64,000 nt of DNA from a phage: the NCBI GenBank assembly GCA_033664045.1, contig GCA_033664045.1_3674.1; one strand, 5' to 3'. How positions within the stretch are numbered: position 1 is the stretch's first letter; every line of letters starts with the position of its first letter. Below the pieces are notes generated by a model that saw nothing but the letters and a program-made list of their open reading frames with translations, was not told where the DNA came from and ran no database searches. The position numbers were made by a program, and so were the translations under genes. Below, in pieces: positions 16,251-57,692 of this stretch.

Positions 16251-16588
16251 GTTTGTGGAGAAATATAGTTAACTACGTGTGCGGCAATCCAACTCCTGAA
16301 GAGAAGGATGTTGTGATTCACGATTTTACTAAAAGATCTCGTGAAAAAGATCTACTGCTAACAAAGGTGACTGATAAAGATCCTGCAGTAGGGGACTGGG
16401 CAGGTTTTGCGTTTACATCGGACAAATACACCTTTAACAAAGGTGACTACCTTGTTGTAGATTTTAACGAAGACATCGAGGGTGCTGAACCTTACTATCA
16501 GACCCTTATTGTTGCAGGGTGTGTTGATCTCTCTGCAGGCATGCACAGTTTGATTCTTTTTGAGCTTGACTCTGAAGACCTTGAGTAG
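16247..16588 (+). CDS. Hypothetical protein
   Basis: Track ORF; 4-nt overlap with helicase. Confidence 0.5.
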   Translation: MSLWRNIVNYVCGNPTPEEKDVVIHDFTKRSREKDLLLTKVTDKDPAVGDWAGFAFTSDKYTFNKGDYLVVDFNEDIEGAEPYYQTLIVAGCVDLSAGMHSLILFELDSEDLE

Positions 16589-16648
16589 TAAGATGTGAGT
16601 ATAAAGGGGAGGCACTCCTCCCCACAAAAACTAAGGAAGCACTAAACG

Positions 16649-16951
16649 ATGAAACGTTATAAACCATACACTTTTGAAATCGATTTCGAACTTGACGATA
16701 TGTTTACTGTAGAAGCTCAGGCAGTTGTCCAGTTGCCAGACCCGGAGTGCCGTGATTCTGATGTTGACTATTACGGATTTAGACAAATTACCGATGTGCA
16801 TGTTTACCACAACGGTGAAGAGGTGGACTTCCACCAACTGCCAAACGATTTGCGACACTCAATTTACAAACGTGCAGCCCGTGAACTAGAGTCCTATCTG
16901 GATGCAGCGACGACAGCAGCTGCATTTGCTGAAGAAGTGGGAGGTTTCTGA
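16649..16951 (+). CDS. Hypothetical protein
   Basis: Track ORF with ribosome-binding site. Confidence 0.5.
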   Translation: MKRYKPYTFEIDFELDDMFTVEAQAVVQLPDPECRDSDVDYYGFRQITDVHVYHNGEEVDFHQLPNDLRHSIYKRAARELESYLDAATTAAAFAEEVGGF

Positions 16952-17349
16952 TGATTACAGGTGTGAAGATTATCCAATACCACTTAACCAAATTGGAAGA
17001 TGCTGAAAAAGAGCTTGCAGAAGTTCTGAATAGTGGATATACTTTACTATCATGCGCCTGCTCAGACACCTACGTTGTGTGGACACTTATCCGGAAGGAA
17101 GAGCCTGCGGGGATCTTGGTGCCAAACCCTAAGATCCTTAGTGAGGTGGATGACTACGCTCAGGACGGCCTGCCAGAAGGCTGGGAAGTATGGGAAGGTG
17201 GTGAAAACCCTGCACCAGGTAAGTGGGTAAAATACAAACTACGTAGCGGTGCGCAGTACGCTGACTACTCTGATGACCTAGACTGGAGTCATTCTTCACC
17301 AGGATCGTCTGCAAGTTCATATGATATCGTTGCTTTTCAGGAAGAATAA
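16951..17349 (+). CDS. Hypothetical protein
   Basis: Track ORF. Confidence 0.5.
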   Translation: MITGVKIIQYHLTKLEDAEKELAEVLNSGYTLLSCACSDTYVVWTLIRKEEPAGILVPNPKILSEVDDYAQDGLPEGWEVWEGGENPAPGKWVKYKLRSGAQYADYSDDLDWSHSSPGSSASSYDIVAFQEE

Positions 17350-17361
17350 GGAGATAGTGTT

Positions 17362-17844
17362 ATGTCAGATTTTATGTGGAAAGTAGGTTACGCAGCTCCT
17401 GAAATGTGTGAGGCTTGCTTTGTGAAAATAGGCCGCGAGGATATCGACAAAGTGATCCTTAAGTTTCGTGATGTAGCTGTGATCGGCAACCGAGTGCTTA
17501 AGCACTTAAAGAATCTGAAGCTCACCAAAAAGAAGTTCTTCGGACTTTTCGAAGAGAAAGTTGATGCTTGGACCCATTGCATTCAGGAAGCTAAATCTCA
17601 CTACAGTGCTATCGTTACCCCAGAACGGGTAGCCAAGATGGAAGGACTCATCAACAGCACAGAGTTTGAGTGCCTAAAGGCTGCCCTTGATAGTTATCCG
17701 AAATGCCTCAAGCACTTGGACAAGTATGTGGAAAAGGATGGGGAAATGTATCTCACCCTGGACGCATATTATGAGATGCAAGAAATTTTAAATTTAGATT
17801 TGACATTGGTATCCACCGAGTATACAATAGGTATCCGGGTTTAA
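17362..17844 (+). CDS. Hypothetical protein
   Basis: AGGAGA site; terminator follows. Confidence 0.5.
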   Translation: MSDFMWKVGYAAPEMCEACFVKIGREDIDKVILKFRDVAVIGNRVLKHLKNLKLTKKKFFGLFEEKVDAWTHCIQEAKSHYSAIVTPERVAKMEGLINSTEFECLKAALDSYPKCLKHLDKYVEKDGEMYLTLDAYYEMQEILNLDLTLVSTEYTIGIRV

Positions 17845-17850
17845 CACTAG

Positions 17851-17878
17851 GCCCTGCCCGAAAGGGTGGGGCTTTTTG
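17851..17878 (+). terminator. Rho-independent terminator (copy 1 of a conserved hairpin)
   Basis: GCCCTGCCC-GAAA-GGGTGGGGC followed by TTTTT; identical 22-bp core at 28658. Confidence 0.7.
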
Positions 17879-17895
17879 CATTAGGAGACAGCAAA

Positions 17896-18657
17896 TTGAA
17901 ATTTATCTACAAAGAACACTACCACAAAGGTGTTGTGTGGAGTCTATTTGACGGGTCTGGTGGTGCAGTCATTGACTGGGCAAAAGCTGGATATCTGTGC
18001 CTGTGCTTTAATGCAGAAGGTGCTGATCACGGCAGCTATGCAGAGGTGATAACCGATCATCCCAACATTCACTACGTGGATTATTGGATTGACCCATGGT
18101 TCCCTCAGGAAACTTTTTGCATGTACCCAGCTCCAGACTTTATTCTTGCATTTCCTCCGTGCACGCATTTAGCGGTATCAGGTGCCGCACATTTTAAGAA
18201 AAAGCTGGCTAAGGACCCCATGATCCAAATTAATGCTGTAAAGGATGCTCGGGTTGCGGAAGAACTGGGAGAGATTTACGATTGCCCGTGGCATGTAGAG
18301 AATCCTGTTGGTGTTATGTCCACACTGTGGCGCAAACCTGATTACCGTTTTCATCCTTCTGACTATGGCGGGTATTTACCGGAGGATGATGTAAACCCCT
18401 GGTTTCCTGAATTTATAGCTCCACGTGATGCCTATCCAAAAATAACTTGCGGCTGGATAGGTAATGGATTTATAATCCCGGCCACAAAACCTGTCCCGCA
18501 AATAGTTGACGCGGTTAGCGGGTATTCCATGCAACACGCCAAGCTGGGTGGAAAGAGTGCAAGAACGAAGATGATCCGAAGCCTTACACCACGTGGCTGG
18601 GCAAAAGCCGTATTCTTAGCAAACGAGCCTGTAGTAAGGAGAAGGGCCAATGGTTGA
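17896..18657 (+). CDS. DNA cytosine-5 methyltransferase-like protein
   Basis: LFDGSGG (motif I-like), FPPCT (motif IV Pro-Cys-like), ENPVG (motif VI ENV-like); TTG start after AGGAGA; short for a canonical enzyme. Confidence 0.4.
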   Translation: MKFIYKEHYHKGVVWSLFDGSGGAVIDWAKAGYLCLCFNAEGADHGSYAEVITDHPNIHYVDYWIDPWFPQETFCMYPAPDFILAFPPCTHLAVSGAAHFKKKLAKDPMIQINAVKDARVAEELGEIYDCPWHVENPVGVMSTLWRKPDYRFHPSDYGGYLPEDDVNPWFPEFIAPRDAYPKITCGWIGNGFIIPATKPVPQIVDAVSGYSMQHAKLGGKSARTKMIRSLTPRGWAKAVFLANEPVVRRRANG

Positions 18658-19321
18658 CTGGAGCAAGTATTTCACCTACAGTGACGGCAAACTGTTCTGG
18701 GCGTACACTGCAAAAGCCGGAAGGGGCAGGGTTATACATTACGCAGGTGAGGAGGCCACAGGTACAGATAAAAATGGCTATAGAGTGATATATGTGTCAG
18801 GTGTTGGGAGTGTTCGTAGGCATAGAATAGTTTGGGAGATGCATTACGGGGAGATACCCGAAGGACTTGTTGTGCGGCACAAGAACGACATAGCAGGCGA
18901 TGATAGGGTAGAGAACTTAGTCCTAGGTACACAGGGCGATAATGCACGAGACATGATCTACAGTGACAAACTGAGCATTAACAATACCTCAGGGTGTCGA
19001 GGTGTACGCTACCATAAAGGCATAAAAAGATGGATTGCATCTGTTGGAGACATATACTTAGGATGTTTTAAGACAAAAGAGGATGCAATTGCATGCAGAA
19101 AGTTATGGGAGAAGGGAAAATTCGTCCCGCAAGAGTTGGATGTTAGAAACACTAGCGGTGTAACAGGAGTGTTCTATGTGCCGAGCTCTGGAAGGTGGAG
19201 AGTAAGAGTGCAAAGCGGCAAAAAGAGAAAGAGCTATGGCACTTACAATACTTTAGAAGAAGCAAAAGCTGTAAGAGATAGAGTGATGAAAGAGATTGAG
19301 GAGTTTAAAGATGGGGAATAA
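18650..19321 (+). CDS. HNH homing endonuclease with AP2 DNA-binding repeats
   Basis: HRIVWEMHYGEIPEGLVVRHKNDIAGDDRVENL (HNH); two AP2-like repeats (GCRGVRYHKGIKRWIASV…, GVTGVFYVPSSGRWRVRV…). Confidence 0.75.
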   Translation: MVDWSKYFTYSDGKLFWAYTAKAGRGRVIHYAGEEATGTDKNGYRVIYVSGVGSVRRHRIVWEMHYGEIPEGLVVRHKNDIAGDDRVENLVLGTQGDNARDMIYSDKLSINNTSGCRGVRYHKGIKRWIASVGDIYLGCFKTKEDAIACRKLWEKGKFVPQELDVRNTSGVTGVFYVPSSGRWRVRVQSGKKRKSYGTYNTLEEAKAVRDRVMKEIEEFKDGE

Positions 19322-21389
19322 GTTTATATCCTCTGCATATAGCCGCTATGGAGAACCCAACCCGGTTGCAACAAGATACAAAAGTGGGGGCAGTATGAAA
19401 CGAGACTATCGTGATGAAAAAGAGGTTGAAACTGTAGAGACTGTTTTAGAAAATACTAAAATTGTCCCTGTTCCACAACAGAATATAGGGCTAATGGCTG
19501 CTCAATATTTTGGTGTGCGATCAGCATTATCCCAAGAAGATGGTGTGACAGTCACTGCAACATATTTTCCATATTATGACCGCTACGGAAATCTGTCTGG
19601 TTTCAAAAAACGTGATTGGTCTAAGCCGAAAGAGCAGAAAGGACACTGGTCTGTAGTAGGCATCGTAAAGGCTAACTCCCAGATGTTTGGTCAAAAGCTG
19701 TGTGCATCTTCCAACAACCGTAAGCAGATTAACGTTTGTGAGGGGGAAGGTGATGTTATTGCAGCATGGCAGGCTGCATATCAGATACAAGTAAAAGGGA
19801 TTCTCACCAACGCTAAAGCCCCGGCAAAGGTGAAGCAGTGGGCTAAAGAGGTCCAAGACGGGATCGACGCAGTTATCAACGGTGGTGATCTGGCAGGAAA
19901 ACCCTGCCTGCCTTTTGTTGGAATTAACTGTGGATGTGCAAACGCAGTAGATACTTTTGCAAACAATGAGAAGTTTATCCGTAGCTATGGAACAGTTGTG
20001 CTGGCAATGGATAACGATGCAGCTAACGAGGTAGAGAAGCAAAAACACGTCATCAAAGGTGTTGAGGCCACGCACAATATCGCAGCATTTTTGATGGCTG
20101 ATAACGTTTACCACGTAGAATACCCCGGTGAAGTAAACGACCCTGATGGTGTAAAAGATATCCGAGACATGCTGAAGGCTAAAAAGCTGGAAGATATTGT
20201 CAACATGTTCCGGCATCCTGTTAAATATGTACCTGATGCTGTGTCGGATTTAGAAGACTTCTCTATCGAGTCTTTGCGGAAAAAGACTTCCAACGGGGTA
20301 GATATCAGTGCAGAGTTCCCAAAACTGCAAAAAATGCTAAAAGGCTTGCACAAAGGGACACTCGTAATGCTTACAGGTCCATCAGGCGGCGGTAAAACAA
20401 CCGTGGCTAAAAAACTGGAACACTGTATTGCAAGATACCTAATGGACCCGACATGCCCGAAGGCCGATGACTATGAAGAGGATGATCGTCTATGTATGAT
20501 CCATCTTGAGGAGGATCCAGAGGAAGCAATTAACTCCTTGTATGCAAACCAGTTAGGGTTTGATGTTAAAGAGTTTGTTGAAGATCCTAGCCAGTTTTTA
20601 ACTGATCAAGAACACGCAGAGATTCACCAATCATGGGCAAAAGCTGGAAAAATCAAAGTGTTCAAACATTTCGGGTCTATTCCGGTGGACGAGTTGATTA
20701 CCAAGCTTAAGCAAATGGTTTGCCTGTACCATTGTCGTTATATTGTGCTGGATCACCTGTCCATGGTAATTTCAGGGCTTAATGTTAAGGATGAGCGAAA
20801 AGAACTGGACATGGCTATGACCCAACTGGCTGCGTTTTGTAAGCAGTTTAACGTGTTTATCTTGGTGATCGCTCACCTCAAACGTACAGAGATTGTGCCT
20901 CCTAAAGACAAGGATGGTAACCCGTTACCTTTCTGGTATCCTGTGCGAAAAGAGAATTTGCGAGGATCGGCTGGGCTTGAACAGTTGAGTTGGGTAGTCA
21001 TAGGTGTCGAGGCCGAAGAAATGGTGGATCGTTCTCGTGGGCGTGTCCGTTTAGTAGGTCTTAAAAACCGTCCAGCAAAAACATTGGGTATTGCAGACAC
21101 TTTGGTTATGGACCCACATACAGGTAAGTTCCATGATGCCAGTAATTGGTACTGGGACAAAGAAATGCAAATGTTTACAGATGGAGAAGGTGGGGAGGTT
21201 GTTTGGAGACCTCAGGCTATGTTTGAGGATCAGGAGCATGCAGTTGTAGAAACACCTATGGGCAAGGTTGTGGCTGATAAGGTTGTAACTCCTACTGTTA
21301 AGCCTGTTGACACGCAGGAAGACCTCCAGTACGATGATCCGTCCTCTGACCATGTTCCTGGTTTTGAGGATGATGAAACACCTTTTTAA
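19311..21389 (+). CDS. Primase-helicase (T7 gp4-like)
   Basis: TOPRIM-like EGEGDVIAAW / AMDNDAANE; helicase motifs LTGPSGGGKTT, YIVLDHLSMV, LVIAHLKR. Confidence 0.85.
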   Translation: MGNKFISSAYSRYGEPNPVATRYKSGGSMKRDYRDEKEVETVETVLENTKIVPVPQQNIGLMAAQYFGVRSALSQEDGVTVTATYFPYYDRYGNLSGFKKRDWSKPKEQKGHWSVVGIVKANSQMFGQKLCASSNNRKQINVCEGEGDVIAAWQAAYQIQVKGILTNAKAPAKVKQWAKEVQDGIDAVINGGDLAGKPCLPFVGINCGCANAVDTFANNEKFIRSYGTVVLAMDNDAANEVEKQKHVIKGVEATHNIAAFLMADNVYHVEYPGEVNDPDGVKDIRDMLKAKKLEDIVNMFRHPVKYVPDAVSDLEDFSIESLRKKTSNGVDISAEFPKLQKMLKGLHKGTLVMLTGPSGGGKTTVAKKLEHCIARYLMDPTCPKADDYEEDDRLCMIHLEEDPEEAINSLYANQLGFDVKEFVEDPSQFLTDQEHAEIHQSWAKAGKIKVFKHFGSIPVDELITKLKQMVCLYHCRYIVLDHLSMVISGLNVKDERKELDMAMTQLAAFCKQFNVFILVIAHLKRTEIVPPKDKDGNPLPFWYPVRKENLRGSAGLEQLSWVVIGVEAEEMVDRSRGRVRLVGLKNRPAKTLGIADTLVMDPHTGKFHDASNWYWDKEMQMFTDGEGGEVVWRPQAMFEDQEHAVVETPMGKVVADKVVTPTVKPVDTQEDLQYDDPSSDHVPGFEDDETPF

Positions 21390-21447
21390 TGTTTAACAAA
21401 GAGTGGGAGGGGTAGTACAACCGCCTCCCCTTTAAGGAGAACACTTT

Positions 21448-24225
21448 ATGAGTATGTATAGCTTCGATTTTGAGGCCTCTGGGCTTTTGGAAGATCCAGA
21501 CCTTTATTATCACTGCGGCCTGTTTAAAGCGTTGAATAAGAACCGTTTTATGCTGTTCCTTCCTCTGAATGACCGCACACACTACTCCGAGGAGGATATA
21601 GAGAAGGCTAAGAACTTTATTCTGGCAAAGAAAACTCTTTATAAGGATTTTGAAGTTCGCATAGCAGATTTTTCGGAGTTGGAAGGGTGGCTTACAGGAA
21701 ATTCTGACTGGTCACCCACAGCTTTGAACTGCCACAACTGCTACAGCTACGACTTTATGCTGATGGAGAGATTGTCCGGTATTCATTTTGATATGTTCCG
21801 TGATCCTAAGTGTATGGGGACTATCAACGACCACCAGGTTAATCTGTTTGATACATTGGCTATGAGCCGAATTTTGTGGCCTGACCGACCTTTGCCAAAA
21901 GGTTGTCCAGACGCTGTATTCAACCCGGTTACTAAGAAAATGCAGCCTGTTGGTCCTCACGGCCTTATGGCATGGGGCTACGCTCTTGGTAACCAGAAAG
22001 TTCAAATTGATGACTGGCGCGATCTTCCGTTGTGGAAGTATGTGGATCGTGTATTCGAGGACGTTATCATCCAGGAGCTGCTCTGGAAAGAGCTGGTAGC
22101 GGAATCAAAAGGTGTATTCTACGGCAAATCTGACATGCAGAACTTTATGTACGATCCTGCCAAAGAGAAGCCGAAAGGATTCAAGAAGATCACCTGGAAG
22201 AACGCATTACGTCGAGGCATGCTGCAGCACTTCCTGATGGAGCTGCAGGCCCGTCAGGGCGTATACTTCGACATAGATGGAGCTATTGCTTTACGTGACC
22301 GTTGCGATGCGTGGATGAAAGAAATCGCTGATCGTGTTGAACCACAACTGCCTTTAAAAGAGCTGTCAATGTCTCAGCGGCCCAAGTTCCCTGAAAAGCC
22401 GTTTAACCAAGACGGGACAATCTCCAATAATGGTTGGAAATGGTTAAAAGATAAGCTTGGCTATCCTGTAGACATGAGCGCTTTAGAGTTCAAAGCCCCG
22501 CCTAAGAGAGCATTTACCTCTACAGGAGATGTCAGCAAGATGGGGATAAAATGGTGTGAAGAGATGGGATGCAAAGACCCCGATAAGATGGCTGATTTCT
22601 TGAGAGGCTATATTAAGGGCACTTCCACACCACACCCTTTGCCTAAAGAGCTGATGGATCAGGCAATAAGTGATCTACAGCAGAAGCGAATGCCGGACTG
22701 CAAGATACCTATGAAAATCAGCAACCAGGACGACATTAAGCGATACCTGATCAGTGCTGGCTGGCTTCCGACAATGTGGAGAACTAAGGATGTAACTAAA
22801 GACAGCAAGAAGAAAGCTTTACCTGATGCAGATGTTGATGCACGAGTATATGCATATATGGACGAGCTTTTGGAGTCAGAGTATTGTGACCTAATTATCA
22901 ACTTCTGGAACAAAACTGATGCTAAGTTCCAGACAACCGTGCACAAGTTCCGAAGCTTTCCTAACTCCGAAAGGATTAAAAAGGAAGTATTCGGGAAAAT
23001 ACGTAGAAAAGCTAGGGCACTTATTACTTCTCCGCAACTGAAAGATACGTTTGGACACCTATGCCCAAATCTTGAAAAATTGAACGGAGAGATGGCTAAA
23101 GATATCGTCTTGTGGTTATCATTGCGAAACCGCAGATCGGTCCTTGATCCAATCAAGGAGGATAAGGTTGATACTGGTCTTCTTAATCACCCACGCTTGA
23201 AGATTGACCATAAGCTTCCTGCTAAAAGTTCTGGATTAACAAACACTTCCCGACAGAAACACAGTATTTGTGCAAACATGCCTAAACCATCTCCTAAAGT
23301 GGTTATGGGTAAAGAGATGCGTAGTCTGTGGGGTGTTCCTCCAGGATACTTTGAGATCGGTATTGACGGGTCCAACTTAGAGCAGCTTATCGGGGCTTGG
23401 GGTGCCTTTGAGTTCGACAACGGCTTGTATTATGATGTTGTAAGTAACGGGGACGCACACCAAAACAATGCTGAGGCATATACAAAAGTAGCAGGCAGAG
23501 AGGTGTCTCGTAACGACGGTAAACCTATCACGTATGGGGTTATGTACGGGGCACAAAAAGATAAAGTTGCAGACATGCTGGATATCTCTCCAGAGTTGGG
23601 GCAAAGGGTAATCGATGCGCTTTGGGATGCCAACCCAGGTCTTAAGGGGCGTAAAGAGGATCTGGAGAAATTCTGGGAAGCAACTGGTAAGAAGTTTATC
23701 TACTCTTTTGATGGTCATGCCATCTGGACCCGATCTAAACACTCTTTACTTAATGCATACCAACAAAATGGCGGTGCATCGTTGTGTGATTTAGTTGGGA
23801 TACTCATGCACCACCAAATGGTGAGGCGTGGGTGGTACGATGAAGGTGTTCGTCGTATTATCTATTACCATGACGAATATCAGCTTCAAGTACCTGACAC
23901 ACCGAAGTATAAGACTGTGTACACCTTCGACACAATTGAAGAATTGGAAGCATTTAAGGCAGAGCAGGAGGCCAAACTTCATGTGTTCGACGGTCATAAG
24001 TACAAAAAGGCACGCAAGGATGAAAACGGAAACGAAGTGGTTGACAGAGACGGAAACACGGTGTACGATCCTATCTTGAACGATGACGGAAAGCTTGAAC
24101 TTATCTGGAGTCCTGTGGGCGAAATGGTGGTACATTGCTTCTGGCAAGCTTCTAAAATGATGGGAGTCCCGTTCCAGATCACAGGTGAATACTTGTGTGG
24201 TCGTAATTGGGGTGATTGTCACTAA
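21448..24225 (+). CDS. Family A DNA polymerase with 3'-5' exonuclease domain
   Basis: Exo I-like FDFEASGL; motif B RNDGKPITYGVMYG; motif C YYHDEYQLQV; 925 aa. Confidence 0.9.
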   Translation: MSMYSFDFEASGLLEDPDLYYHCGLFKALNKNRFMLFLPLNDRTHYSEEDIEKAKNFILAKKTLYKDFEVRIADFSELEGWLTGNSDWSPTALNCHNCYSYDFMLMERLSGIHFDMFRDPKCMGTINDHQVNLFDTLAMSRILWPDRPLPKGCPDAVFNPVTKKMQPVGPHGLMAWGYALGNQKVQIDDWRDLPLWKYVDRVFEDVIIQELLWKELVAESKGVFYGKSDMQNFMYDPAKEKPKGFKKITWKNALRRGMLQHFLMELQARQGVYFDIDGAIALRDRCDAWMKEIADRVEPQLPLKELSMSQRPKFPEKPFNQDGTISNNGWKWLKDKLGYPVDMSALEFKAPPKRAFTSTGDVSKMGIKWCEEMGCKDPDKMADFLRGYIKGTSTPHPLPKELMDQAISDLQQKRMPDCKIPMKISNQDDIKRYLISAGWLPTMWRTKDVTKDSKKKALPDADVDARVYAYMDELLESEYCDLIINFWNKTDAKFQTTVHKFRSFPNSERIKKEVFGKIRRKARALITSPQLKDTFGHLCPNLEKLNGEMAKDIVLWLSLRNRRSVLDPIKEDKVDTGLLNHPRLKIDHKLPAKSSGLTNTSRQKHSICANMPKPSPKVVMGKEMRSLWGVPPGYFEIGIDGSNLEQLIGAWGAFEFDNGLYYDVVSNGDAHQNNAEAYTKVAGREVSRNDGKPITYGVMYGAQKDKVADMLDISPELGQRVIDALWDANPGLKGRKEDLEKFWEATGKKFIYSFDGHAIWTRSKHSLLNAYQQNGGASLCDLVGILMHHQMVRRGWYDEGVRRIIYYHDEYQLQVPDTPKYKTVYTFDTIEELEAFKAEQEAKLHVFDGHKYKKARKDENGNEVVDRDGNTVYDPILNDDGKLELIWSPVGEMVVHCFWQASKMMGVPFQITGEYLCGRNWGDCH

Positions 24226-56877: not shown

Positions 56878-57162
56878 CTACCAAGTTACTGTCAAGTAGG
56901 CAACAGTGTTATTTTTCTCTGGAGAGATGCCAACAACATCTACCTGCAGACCTCCTGCCCTCAAATCCCCAACAATATGCGGGAAGTAATCTGAGAGATG
57001 CGAGGGTAGATTTATCGAAAATCCGCATCCCAGAAAGCCTGCTAACGCTTTATTTTGTATCTCCCCTACAATCGCATCATAAATGGAGTTAAGCTCGTCA
57101 GGGAGCGTTACAGGACGTTTTAGCGCTAACTGGTGTAATTTGTCCTTAGCACTCATTTTCAT
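56878..57162 (-). CDS. Hypothetical protein
   Basis: Start placed at the internal Met that overlaps the Dam stop (ATGA). Confidence 0.5.
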   Translation of the reverse strand: MKMSAKDKLHQLALKRPVTLPDELNSIYDAIVGEIQNKALAGFLGCGFSINLPSHLSDYFPHIVGDLRAGGLQVDVVGISPEKNNTVAYLTVTW

Positions 57163-57692
57163 TTCAGGTCTACCTCTGGGGGTGCCAACCACATAAACGG
57201 CGGCAAGTCTAAACGGTTTTTCTTATCCCACACAAAATATGCATATGCTTGCCCGTCAGTTCTGCCATTTGATTGAAATGATGGACGCTTAGATATTGTG
57301 ATCACAGTGGTAGGTGCATTATCAAGCCACCATTCAAATCTGGCTTTGCTTTCCAGAAAATTAAGACGCAAAAGCATAATAACTACGTCAGCATCTTTCA
57401 ACGCCTTGTCTACGAACTCACGAGCCAGACTGTACGGTGGGTTGGTGATAATACAGTCAACATGGTTGTATTCTGTATTCAGATAGTCAACACCTTCTTG
57501 GATTTCTCCCCATGCAGATCCTAACGGCATACGGGAGTAGAACACACCTGAGGCACTATTCCTGCAAGGCTCTAAGTAGGTCCAGTCCTCTGGGAACGGA
57601 ATAAGGTCATACAGCCCTTCTGCACACCACTCCGGTGTCACATACTCATCGTATGCGTTACGTTGTTCATCAGGTTTTCTAGCACAAGTCAT
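57159..57692 (-). CDS. dam: DNA N6-adenine methyltransferase (phage Dam-like)
   Basis: Catalytic motif IV ITNPPYS; about 177 aa. Confidence 0.7.
   Translation of the reverse strand: MTCARKPDEQRNAYDEYVTPEWCAEGLYDLIPFPEDWTYLEPCRNSASGVFYSRMPLGSAWGEIQEGVDYLNTEYNHVDCIITNPPYSLAREFVDKALKDADVVIMLLRLNFLESKARFEWWLDNAPTTVITISKRPSFQSNGRTDGQAYAYFVWDKKNRLDLPPFMWLAPPEVDLK

Follow-up and report, generated by a model that had tools for sequence, protein, structure and literature searches.

The short Dcm-like proteins of phages include that of the Drexlerviridae phage K42, in which all escapers of retron Ec86 (Retron-Eco1) disrupt a 711-bp Dcm-like gene (preprint, bioRxiv 10.1101/2023.08.16.553469). Expression of this gene raised 5-methylcytosine (5mC) in multicopy single-stranded DNA, as measured by liquid chromatography–mass spectrometry, and activated the retron, whereas a C82A/E128A/K175A/K176A mutant caused neither the rise in 5mC nor the trigger; the authors aligned their model of the enzyme to DNMT3A (10.1101/2023.08.16.553469), and a 2025 Nature Communications paper treats the result as established (PMC12673091). 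Two papers on Vequintavirinae had also called the homologous gene there a cytosine methylase on the basis of HHpred matches (PMC7344957, PMC11370258). The family therefore has a reported activity and is a known trigger of a defence system. Here we describe a member of it in a 64,000-nucleotide stretch of phage DNA (contig GCA_033664045.1_3674.1; hereafter, the window), where an open reading frame (ORF) for a 253-amino-acid protein (17896–18657, plus strand) is followed by an ORF for an HNH-AP2 protein (18650–19321, plus strand). We consider it likely that the first encodes a minimal orphan C5 methyltransferase dependent on S-adenosyl-L-methionine (AdoMet) and belonging to PHROG 757, and that the second encodes an unrelated selfish homing endonuclease.

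The gene pair is an ordinary one, already annotated with the same functions in near-identical GenBank genomes. In the phage EmilHeitz (Bas49), the product of bas49_0074 (QXV77976.1) has the same TTG start, the same length of 253 amino acids, 99.6% protein identity to the window protein and the same position 5′ of the HNH and primase/helicase genes, and the homing endonuclease that follows is 98.2% identical to the window HNH protein. The two carry the GenBank labels ‘Dcm-like C5 cytosine methyltransferase’ and ‘putative homing endonuclease’, the first of which is used for this gene across the records of the BASEL phages.

The fold of the window protein is that of a class I methyltransferase, C5 type, and the protein matches PHROG 757 (‘DNA methyltransferase’) with an E value of 3.6e-87 over residues 10–261 of a 263-residue reading of the frame. 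The first-pass annotation, a reading of the DNA letters alone, had placed both ORFs where we find them and had noticed blocks resembling motifs I, IV and VI of C5 methyltransferases in the 253-residue protein, all of which are present: F18-D-G-S-G-G (motif I) after strand E13-17, P87-P88-C89-T90 (motif IV) and E135-N136-P137-V138 (motif VI). Motif I is aligned with its counterparts in DNMT3B and M.HaeIII, C89 of motif IV aligns with the PC of these two enzymes and with C82 of K42 Dcm, and E135 aligns with E128 of K42 Dcm, the Val of the usual ENV being replaced by Pro. Across 70 diverse family members, C89 and E135 are invariant (70/70), and at least 90% of the members retain F86, P87, T90, N136, P137 and K182 as well as a C-terminal R228-S-x-T-P-x-G block, which here forms an R228-S-L-T-P-R-G-W helix; R233 within it is conserved in less than 90%. 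PCT in place of PCQ, which the same annotation had flagged, is indeed what the protein carries, but given the conservation of T90 it is no oddity; it is the norm of the short Dcm-like family and gives no sign of a new chemistry. Candidate residues for motifs VIII and X are R177, D178 and K182, which precede strand 7, and those of the R228-S-L-T-P-R-G-W helix (with E. coli Dcm, hhalign aligned motif IV only).

The family so defined is large and uniform in size. A word-indexed database returned 3553 homologs, nearly all of 225–260 amino acids; an exhaustive search returned 2082 clusters at 50% identity (E ≤1e-3); and tblastn placed the gene in 1506 phage records, among them Vequintavirinae, Drexlerviridae, Dhillonvirus, Klebsiella siphoviruses, Phapecoctavirus-like myoviruses and others, under annotations that vary between DNA methyltransferase, cytosine methyltransferase and hypothetical protein. 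Therapeutic-type coliphages and Klebsiella phages very commonly carry a member, and one methylome experiment would annotate thousands of genes. The K42 genome is 95.4% identical to that of KarlJaspers (Bas06) (10.1101/2023.08.16.553469), the protein of which stood in for K42 in our comparison: the product of the 711-bp gene bas06_0055 (236 amino acids) and the window protein share 54% identity over 235 residues (E 2e-86), with C82, E128 and K175 of the former opposite C89, E135 and K182 of the latter. The two proteins thus belong to the same short family and both model best onto DNMT3A, although the K42/KarlJaspers gene lies among small ORFs in Drexlerviridae, not beside a primase/helicase, whereas the window gene adjoins replication genes. 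An earlier suggestion that the window protein could be a cytosine-modifying enzyme therefore gains support, as an enzyme of the C5-cytosine-methyltransferase fold with a 54%-identical homolog for which 5mC formation has been reported.

How this short family relates to the canonical enzymes of PF00145 (M.HhaI, M.HaeIII, E. coli Dcm and the catalytic domain of DNMT3A/3B) is less direct. The window protein is approximately 70–220 residues shorter than these, has PCT and ENP where they carry PCQ and ENV and, unlike them, possesses an ADHG block after strand 2 that is invariant in the A2 set of sequences. Searches of the Protein Data Bank (PDB) with phmmer and two profiles gave weak matches (E 0.05–1) that were consistently to DNMT3B and M.HaeIII, and the profile searches aligned motifs I to IV with both in register; the C-terminal 72 residues searched alone gave nothing relevant. 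Although the window protein misses the gathering threshold of PF00145, three family members that are 55–57% identical to it pass (24.7–28.5 bits against 22, in motifs I–IV only), and these therefore form a sequence bridge from the short family to canonical C5 methyltransferases. No such bridge appeared among the best 150 matches from a search of 1.84 billion representatives, which were all short proteins of the same family. Given the short recognition region and the FDG-type motif I, DNMT3 is the closest of the canonical enzymes; the recognition region spans only about 40 residues (approximately 190–228, between strand E184-189 and the C-terminal helices), which likens the protein to DNMT3 more than to bacterial type II enzymes.

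Several observations weigh against the assignment as an active 5mC-forming enzyme and have to be set beside this evidence. The profile search that had been proposed as a check gave the PHROG 757 match, but scans of Pfam and NCBIfam with the 263-residue reading returned no match, even at E values up to 1. The profile links to solved C5 methyltransferases are weak (E 0.05–0.5) and confined to motifs I–IV, and hhalign, given the family alignment and E. coli Dcm, matched motif IV alone with a probability of 0.3%. Between motifs VIII and IX there is no target-recognition domain of the usual size, in keeping with a protein length of 253 amino acids against 324–472 for M.HaeIII, M.HhaI and Dcm. One of the residues mutated in K42, K176, corresponds to Ile183 in the window protein. 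The K42 study, itself a preprint, used a dcm+ host and assumed a CCWGG target from the host Dcm, without mapping it (10.1101/2023.08.16.553469), and a literature search found no mapped motif or virion methylome for any Vequintavirus or short Dcm-like enzyme. Last, in the BASEL experiments Vequintavirinae were ‘exceptionally susceptible’ to restriction-modification (RM) systems.

Some of these points would also be expected if the protein were a catalytically inactive, methyltransferase-like protein that binds DNA or flips bases, acting in regulation or as a decoy against host defence. The missing Pfam match, the minimal recognition region and the RM sensitivity of the phages fit such a protein, as do the motif I glycines, which vary among close relatives of the window protein at the second Gly (FDGSE, FNGSD). 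Motif I of DNMT3 (FDGIATG) shows comparable variation. Invariance of Cys89 and Glu135 in the 70 diverse sequences would be unexpected for a non-enzyme, however, and the catalytic-site mutant of the K42 homolog loses its effect. Between the window and its relative MaxBurger, the methyltransferase gene has 27 synonymous and 2 non-synonymous codon differences (pN/pS of approximately 0.02), and between the window and EmilHeitz 25 synonymous and none non-synonymous, a pattern that points to a functional gene under constraint; strong purifying selection also speaks against an inactive protein, although alone it is unable to separate the two readings. Taken with the invariant catalytic pair and the K42 mutant, we regard loss of catalysis as very unlikely.

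For an active methyltransferase, given that the fold and catalytic residues are homologous to those of known enzymes, we propose the canonical cycle. The target cytosine would be flipped out and attacked at C6 by Cys89 of PPC, with Glu135 of ENP protonating N3; the methyl group would then pass to C5 from AdoMet, which the F18-D-G-S-G-G loop and the C-terminal helix would keep in place, after which the cysteine would be eliminated. As the gene lies in the replication module, directly 5′ of the primase/helicase and DNA polymerase genes, it is newly replicated phage DNA that would most likely be methylated, at a short sequence motif. CCWGG occurs at 132 sites in the window (observed/expected 0.85) and is not avoided, a count that is compatible with methylation of CCWGG but gives no evidence for it. 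EcoRI, EcoRV and GATC sites occur at expectation in the same site statistics and offer no clue to specificity. As a separate observation on the whole window, CTAG (64 observed against 125.2 expected, observed/expected 0.51) and GTAC (120 against 193.9, 0.62) are the most under-represented 4-base palindromes.

The same fold could in principle serve another group or substrate: a carboxymethyl group taken from the host's carboxy-S-adenosyl-L-methionine (Cx-SAM) to give 5-carboxymethylcytosine (as in CmoX), tRNA as the acceptor (as in DNMT2), or single-stranded or replicating DNA with little specificity. We judge this group of alternatives quite unlikely. The DNA cytosine C5-carboxymethyltransferase CmoX of Synechococcus phage S-B43 (PDB 8YF3) is marked by an SPPC motif, by Arg350 (an Arg at the position of the motif X Asn) and by a neighbouring phage cmoA (PMC12783734). 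The window protein does not present this set of hallmarks, having FPPC where CmoX has SPPC and, in R233, a candidate counterpart of Arg350, and the 64-kb window holds no CmoA homolog; the CmoX gene itself is absent from the first 50 kb of Synechococcus phage S-B43. Use of Cx-SAM by the window protein is accordingly unlikely, and so is a very relaxed specificity. For the short Dcm-like family as a whole, a related idea, to which we give only a small chance, is that its members are not plain CCWGG methylases, and may instead act in a very short or degenerate context, on replication intermediates, or with Cx-SAM besides AdoMet through the Arg of the TPRGW block. The sole experiment on a homolog, that on K42, assayed 5mC alone and in a dcm+ host (10.1101/2023.08.16.553469). 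If the idea were true, common coliphages would carry an unrecognised cytosine mark.

The benefit of 5mC to the phage would probably be site-specific (that is, protection from restriction enzymes with the methylated cytosine in their site) rather than a broad anti-restriction effect. The first-pass annotation had gone further and read the methyltransferase genes of this DNA as a sign that the phage modifies its genome against restriction. As a general statement this finds no support, given the RM susceptibility of Vequintavirinae in the BASEL experiments; EmilHeitz, which has both genes of the pair, is itself a BASEL Vequintavirus isolate, and in Drexlerviridae the BASEL study saw restriction phenotypes that bore no simple relation to methyltransferase genes. 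Site-specific 5mC would not shield DNA from the enzymes tested there unless the sites overlap, and these results thus count against protection of a broad kind, though not against the activity of the enzyme. Since close relatives are exceptionally RM-sensitive, the presence of methyltransferase genes should not be taken to mean restriction resistance.

The second ORF belongs to a different class of element. Free-standing HNH-AP2 homing endonucleases of phages (PHROG 99) are known for the same domain architecture, for sporadic occurrence between genes and for a diverged flank, and the window gene has all three of these features. It encodes 223 amino acids (ATG start, TAA stop) and contains an HNH_3 domain at residues 56–100 (Pfam E 5e-17, 61.7 bits against a cut-off of 24.8) and two AP2 stretches (E 5.8e-11, 43 bits against 33.3); the match to PHROG 99 has an E value of 2.7e-53. 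An insertion of this gene between the methyltransferase and primase/helicase genes had been correctly recognised from the letters alone. Among 121 phage records that match the region 17000–21500, only five (Phage 203, Phage 206, a 1.4-kb fragment record, EmilHeitz and HeinrichReichert) have at this site a copy that is at least 93% identical, whereas approximately 116 cover the region in two pieces without the HNH gene and are otherwise collinear. Other HNH-AP2 genes of the same phages are at most 37% identical to it and are located elsewhere; this copy and its insertion site are confined to five Vequintavirus records.

Alignment with MaxBurger, which lacks the HNH gene, gives clean insertion junctions. 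In empty genomes an AGGAG serves the primase; here this AGGAG falls to the HNH gene, and a new GAGGAG for the primase lies at the 3′ end of the HNH gene, which suggests that the element was inserted exactly at the methyltransferase/primase junction, took over the ribosome-binding site of the primase and supplied a new one. Directly 3′ of the insert, a diverged tract covers the 5′ end of the primase/helicase gene (19311–19400, plus strand), with 68–80% identity to MaxBurger; elsewhere the window and MaxBurger are 97–100% identical in most 60-nucleotide windows of 4.8 kb, with a few other dips to 73–93%. The primase N-terminus reads MGNKFISSAYSRYGEP in the window and MGSKFMASAYNRFGEP in MaxBurger, and on the other side of the insert the final five methyltransferase codons are likewise different, the C-terminal tail of this protein being RRRANG in the window and RSRINGK in relatives without the HNH gene, such as MaxBurger. 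Insertion of the HNH gene probably remodelled both the end of the methyltransferase gene, in its last codons, and the start of the primase gene, over approximately 30 codons, and the tract at 19311–19400 is probably either a co-conversion tract or a cleavage-resistant variant of the target. Sporadic presence together with a co-converted or cleavage-resistant flank is what usually marks a free-standing homing endonuclease, and we read the HNH-AP2 gene as a sporadic mobile insert and a predicted homing endonuclease.

The two genes are adjacent, with the HNH ORF overlapping the methyltransferase stop codon by 8 nucleotides, and are apparently translationally coupled; such an arrangement would suit a functional pair (that is, an RM-like or self-protection module). 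The HNH ORF has its own AGGAG. Distribution led us to reject such a pair, and we regard it as extremely improbable: at least 117 phage records encode a methyltransferase that shares 95% identity or more with the window protein, but only five have this HNH gene, the methyltransferase family is widespread in phages with no HNH neighbour, and the paralogous HNH-AP2 genes (again at most 37% identical) sit at unrelated loci of the same phages. The diverged flank, moreover, lies on the primase side, as expected of a homing site. Nothing points to a functional tie of the HNH gene to the methyltransferase, and we retain the reading of an orphan methyltransferase followed by a selfish endonuclease.

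The window derives from a Vequintavirus (rV5-like) phage of E. coli, as nearly all of the 121 records that match 17000–21500 are rV5-like Vequintavirus. Phage 203 and Phage 206 match this region over its full length with 96.8% identity, and EmilHeitz and HeinrichReichert (Bas58) are 96.7% and 95.7% identical to it. Genes of the locus follow the order Pif1/Dda-like helicase, small ORFs, short methyltransferase, HNH gene, primase/helicase and family A DNA polymerase, a set that constitutes the replication module of rV5-like phages. The primase/helicase gene (19311–21389, plus strand) matches PHROG 239 (E 1.3e-159) and the Pfam families DnaB_C and AAA_25. Its start is most likely ATG 19311, a revision from TTG 19296 in the ORF list, because the 11-nucleotide overlap with the HNH stop codon that results matches the annotated methyltransferase/primase overlap in relatives without the HNH gene, such as MaxBurger, and because the relatives are annotated accordingly. 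Among the matching records are 16 that are named as Campylobacter phages (MG065644–MG065669, host given as Campylobacter jejuni), which are unannotated and match this E. coli rV5-like region; the four of these that were listed are 95.5–95.9% identical to it, and the host labels seem doubtful.

At the 5′ end of the methyltransferase gene (stop codon TGA 18655–18657), an AGGAG ribosome-binding site read off the sequence (17883–17887, plus strand) lies 8 nucleotides 5′ of TTG 17896, a start that the EmilHeitz and MaxBurger annotations share. Between the upstream ORF and this ribosome-binding site stands a terminator-like structure, a G+C-rich hairpin followed by a T-run (17849–17874, plus strand). 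TTG 17896 is preferred because this hairpin overlaps the alternative start GTG 17866, which we rejected as it falls within the hairpin and has no ribosome-binding site. A sigma-70-like promoter match (TTGACA, 17 nucleotides, TACAAT; 11 of 12 positions; 17800–17828, plus strand), based on consensus alone, is found at the 3′ end of the upstream gene. As it precedes the hairpin, the terminator-like structure would sit in the 5′ leader of the methyltransferase transcript, where it could be an attenuator or a stabilising stem–loop; alternatively, the promoter match could be due to chance.

The window and its relatives also carry other methyltransferase-like genes. The 177-residue protein encoded at 57159–57692 (minus strand), which the first-pass annotation took for a Dam-like enzyme, carries ITNPPY (that is, an NPPY motif) and matches PHROG 799 (‘DNA methyltransferase’, E 8e-67), but its alignment is limited to the C-terminal portion of the profile, which has 458 positions, and it remains below the Pfam thresholds for Dam (19.2 against 28.1 bits) and EcoRI_methylase (20.1 against 26.4 bits). 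It is unusually small for an N6-adenine methyltransferase. A 441-residue N6_N4 methyltransferase (PF01555, E 1.5e-42) is encoded between a 113-residue and a 100-residue ORF in 88 relatives (MaxBurger and 87 others); in the window the corresponding interval (16588–16649) comprises only approximately 60 bp, and there is no copy elsewhere in the 64 kb. Its absence from the window, when most relatives have it, further weakens the anti-restriction reading. This gene appears truncated in EmilHeitz, and AAAYGATGA at both of its junctions in occupied genomes makes it look like an indel cassette. The 100-residue ORF (16649–16951) has a weak match to PHROG 1573 (‘DNA methyltransferase’, E 3.1e-5) and a match to PHROG 4240, to which no function is assigned.

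Some distant members of the short methyltransferase family are fused to other modules: P0262 (348 amino acids) contains a nuclease domain (HNH_2), P0249 and P0254 are extended at the N-terminus by approximately 180 residues, and two entries of the BFVD (A0A6J5SE15 and A0A6J5NPY6) are helicase-containing proteins of 1100–1400 amino acids. The DNA polymerase gene of the locus also differs among near-identical phages. Its ORF is unbroken in the window (21448–24225, 925 amino acids), whereas the EmilHeitz gene (L001 10446–14065) is annotated as two joined pieces with a ‘putative homing endonuclease’ within (L001 13010–13516), a further presence/absence polymorphism of a mobile endonuclease.

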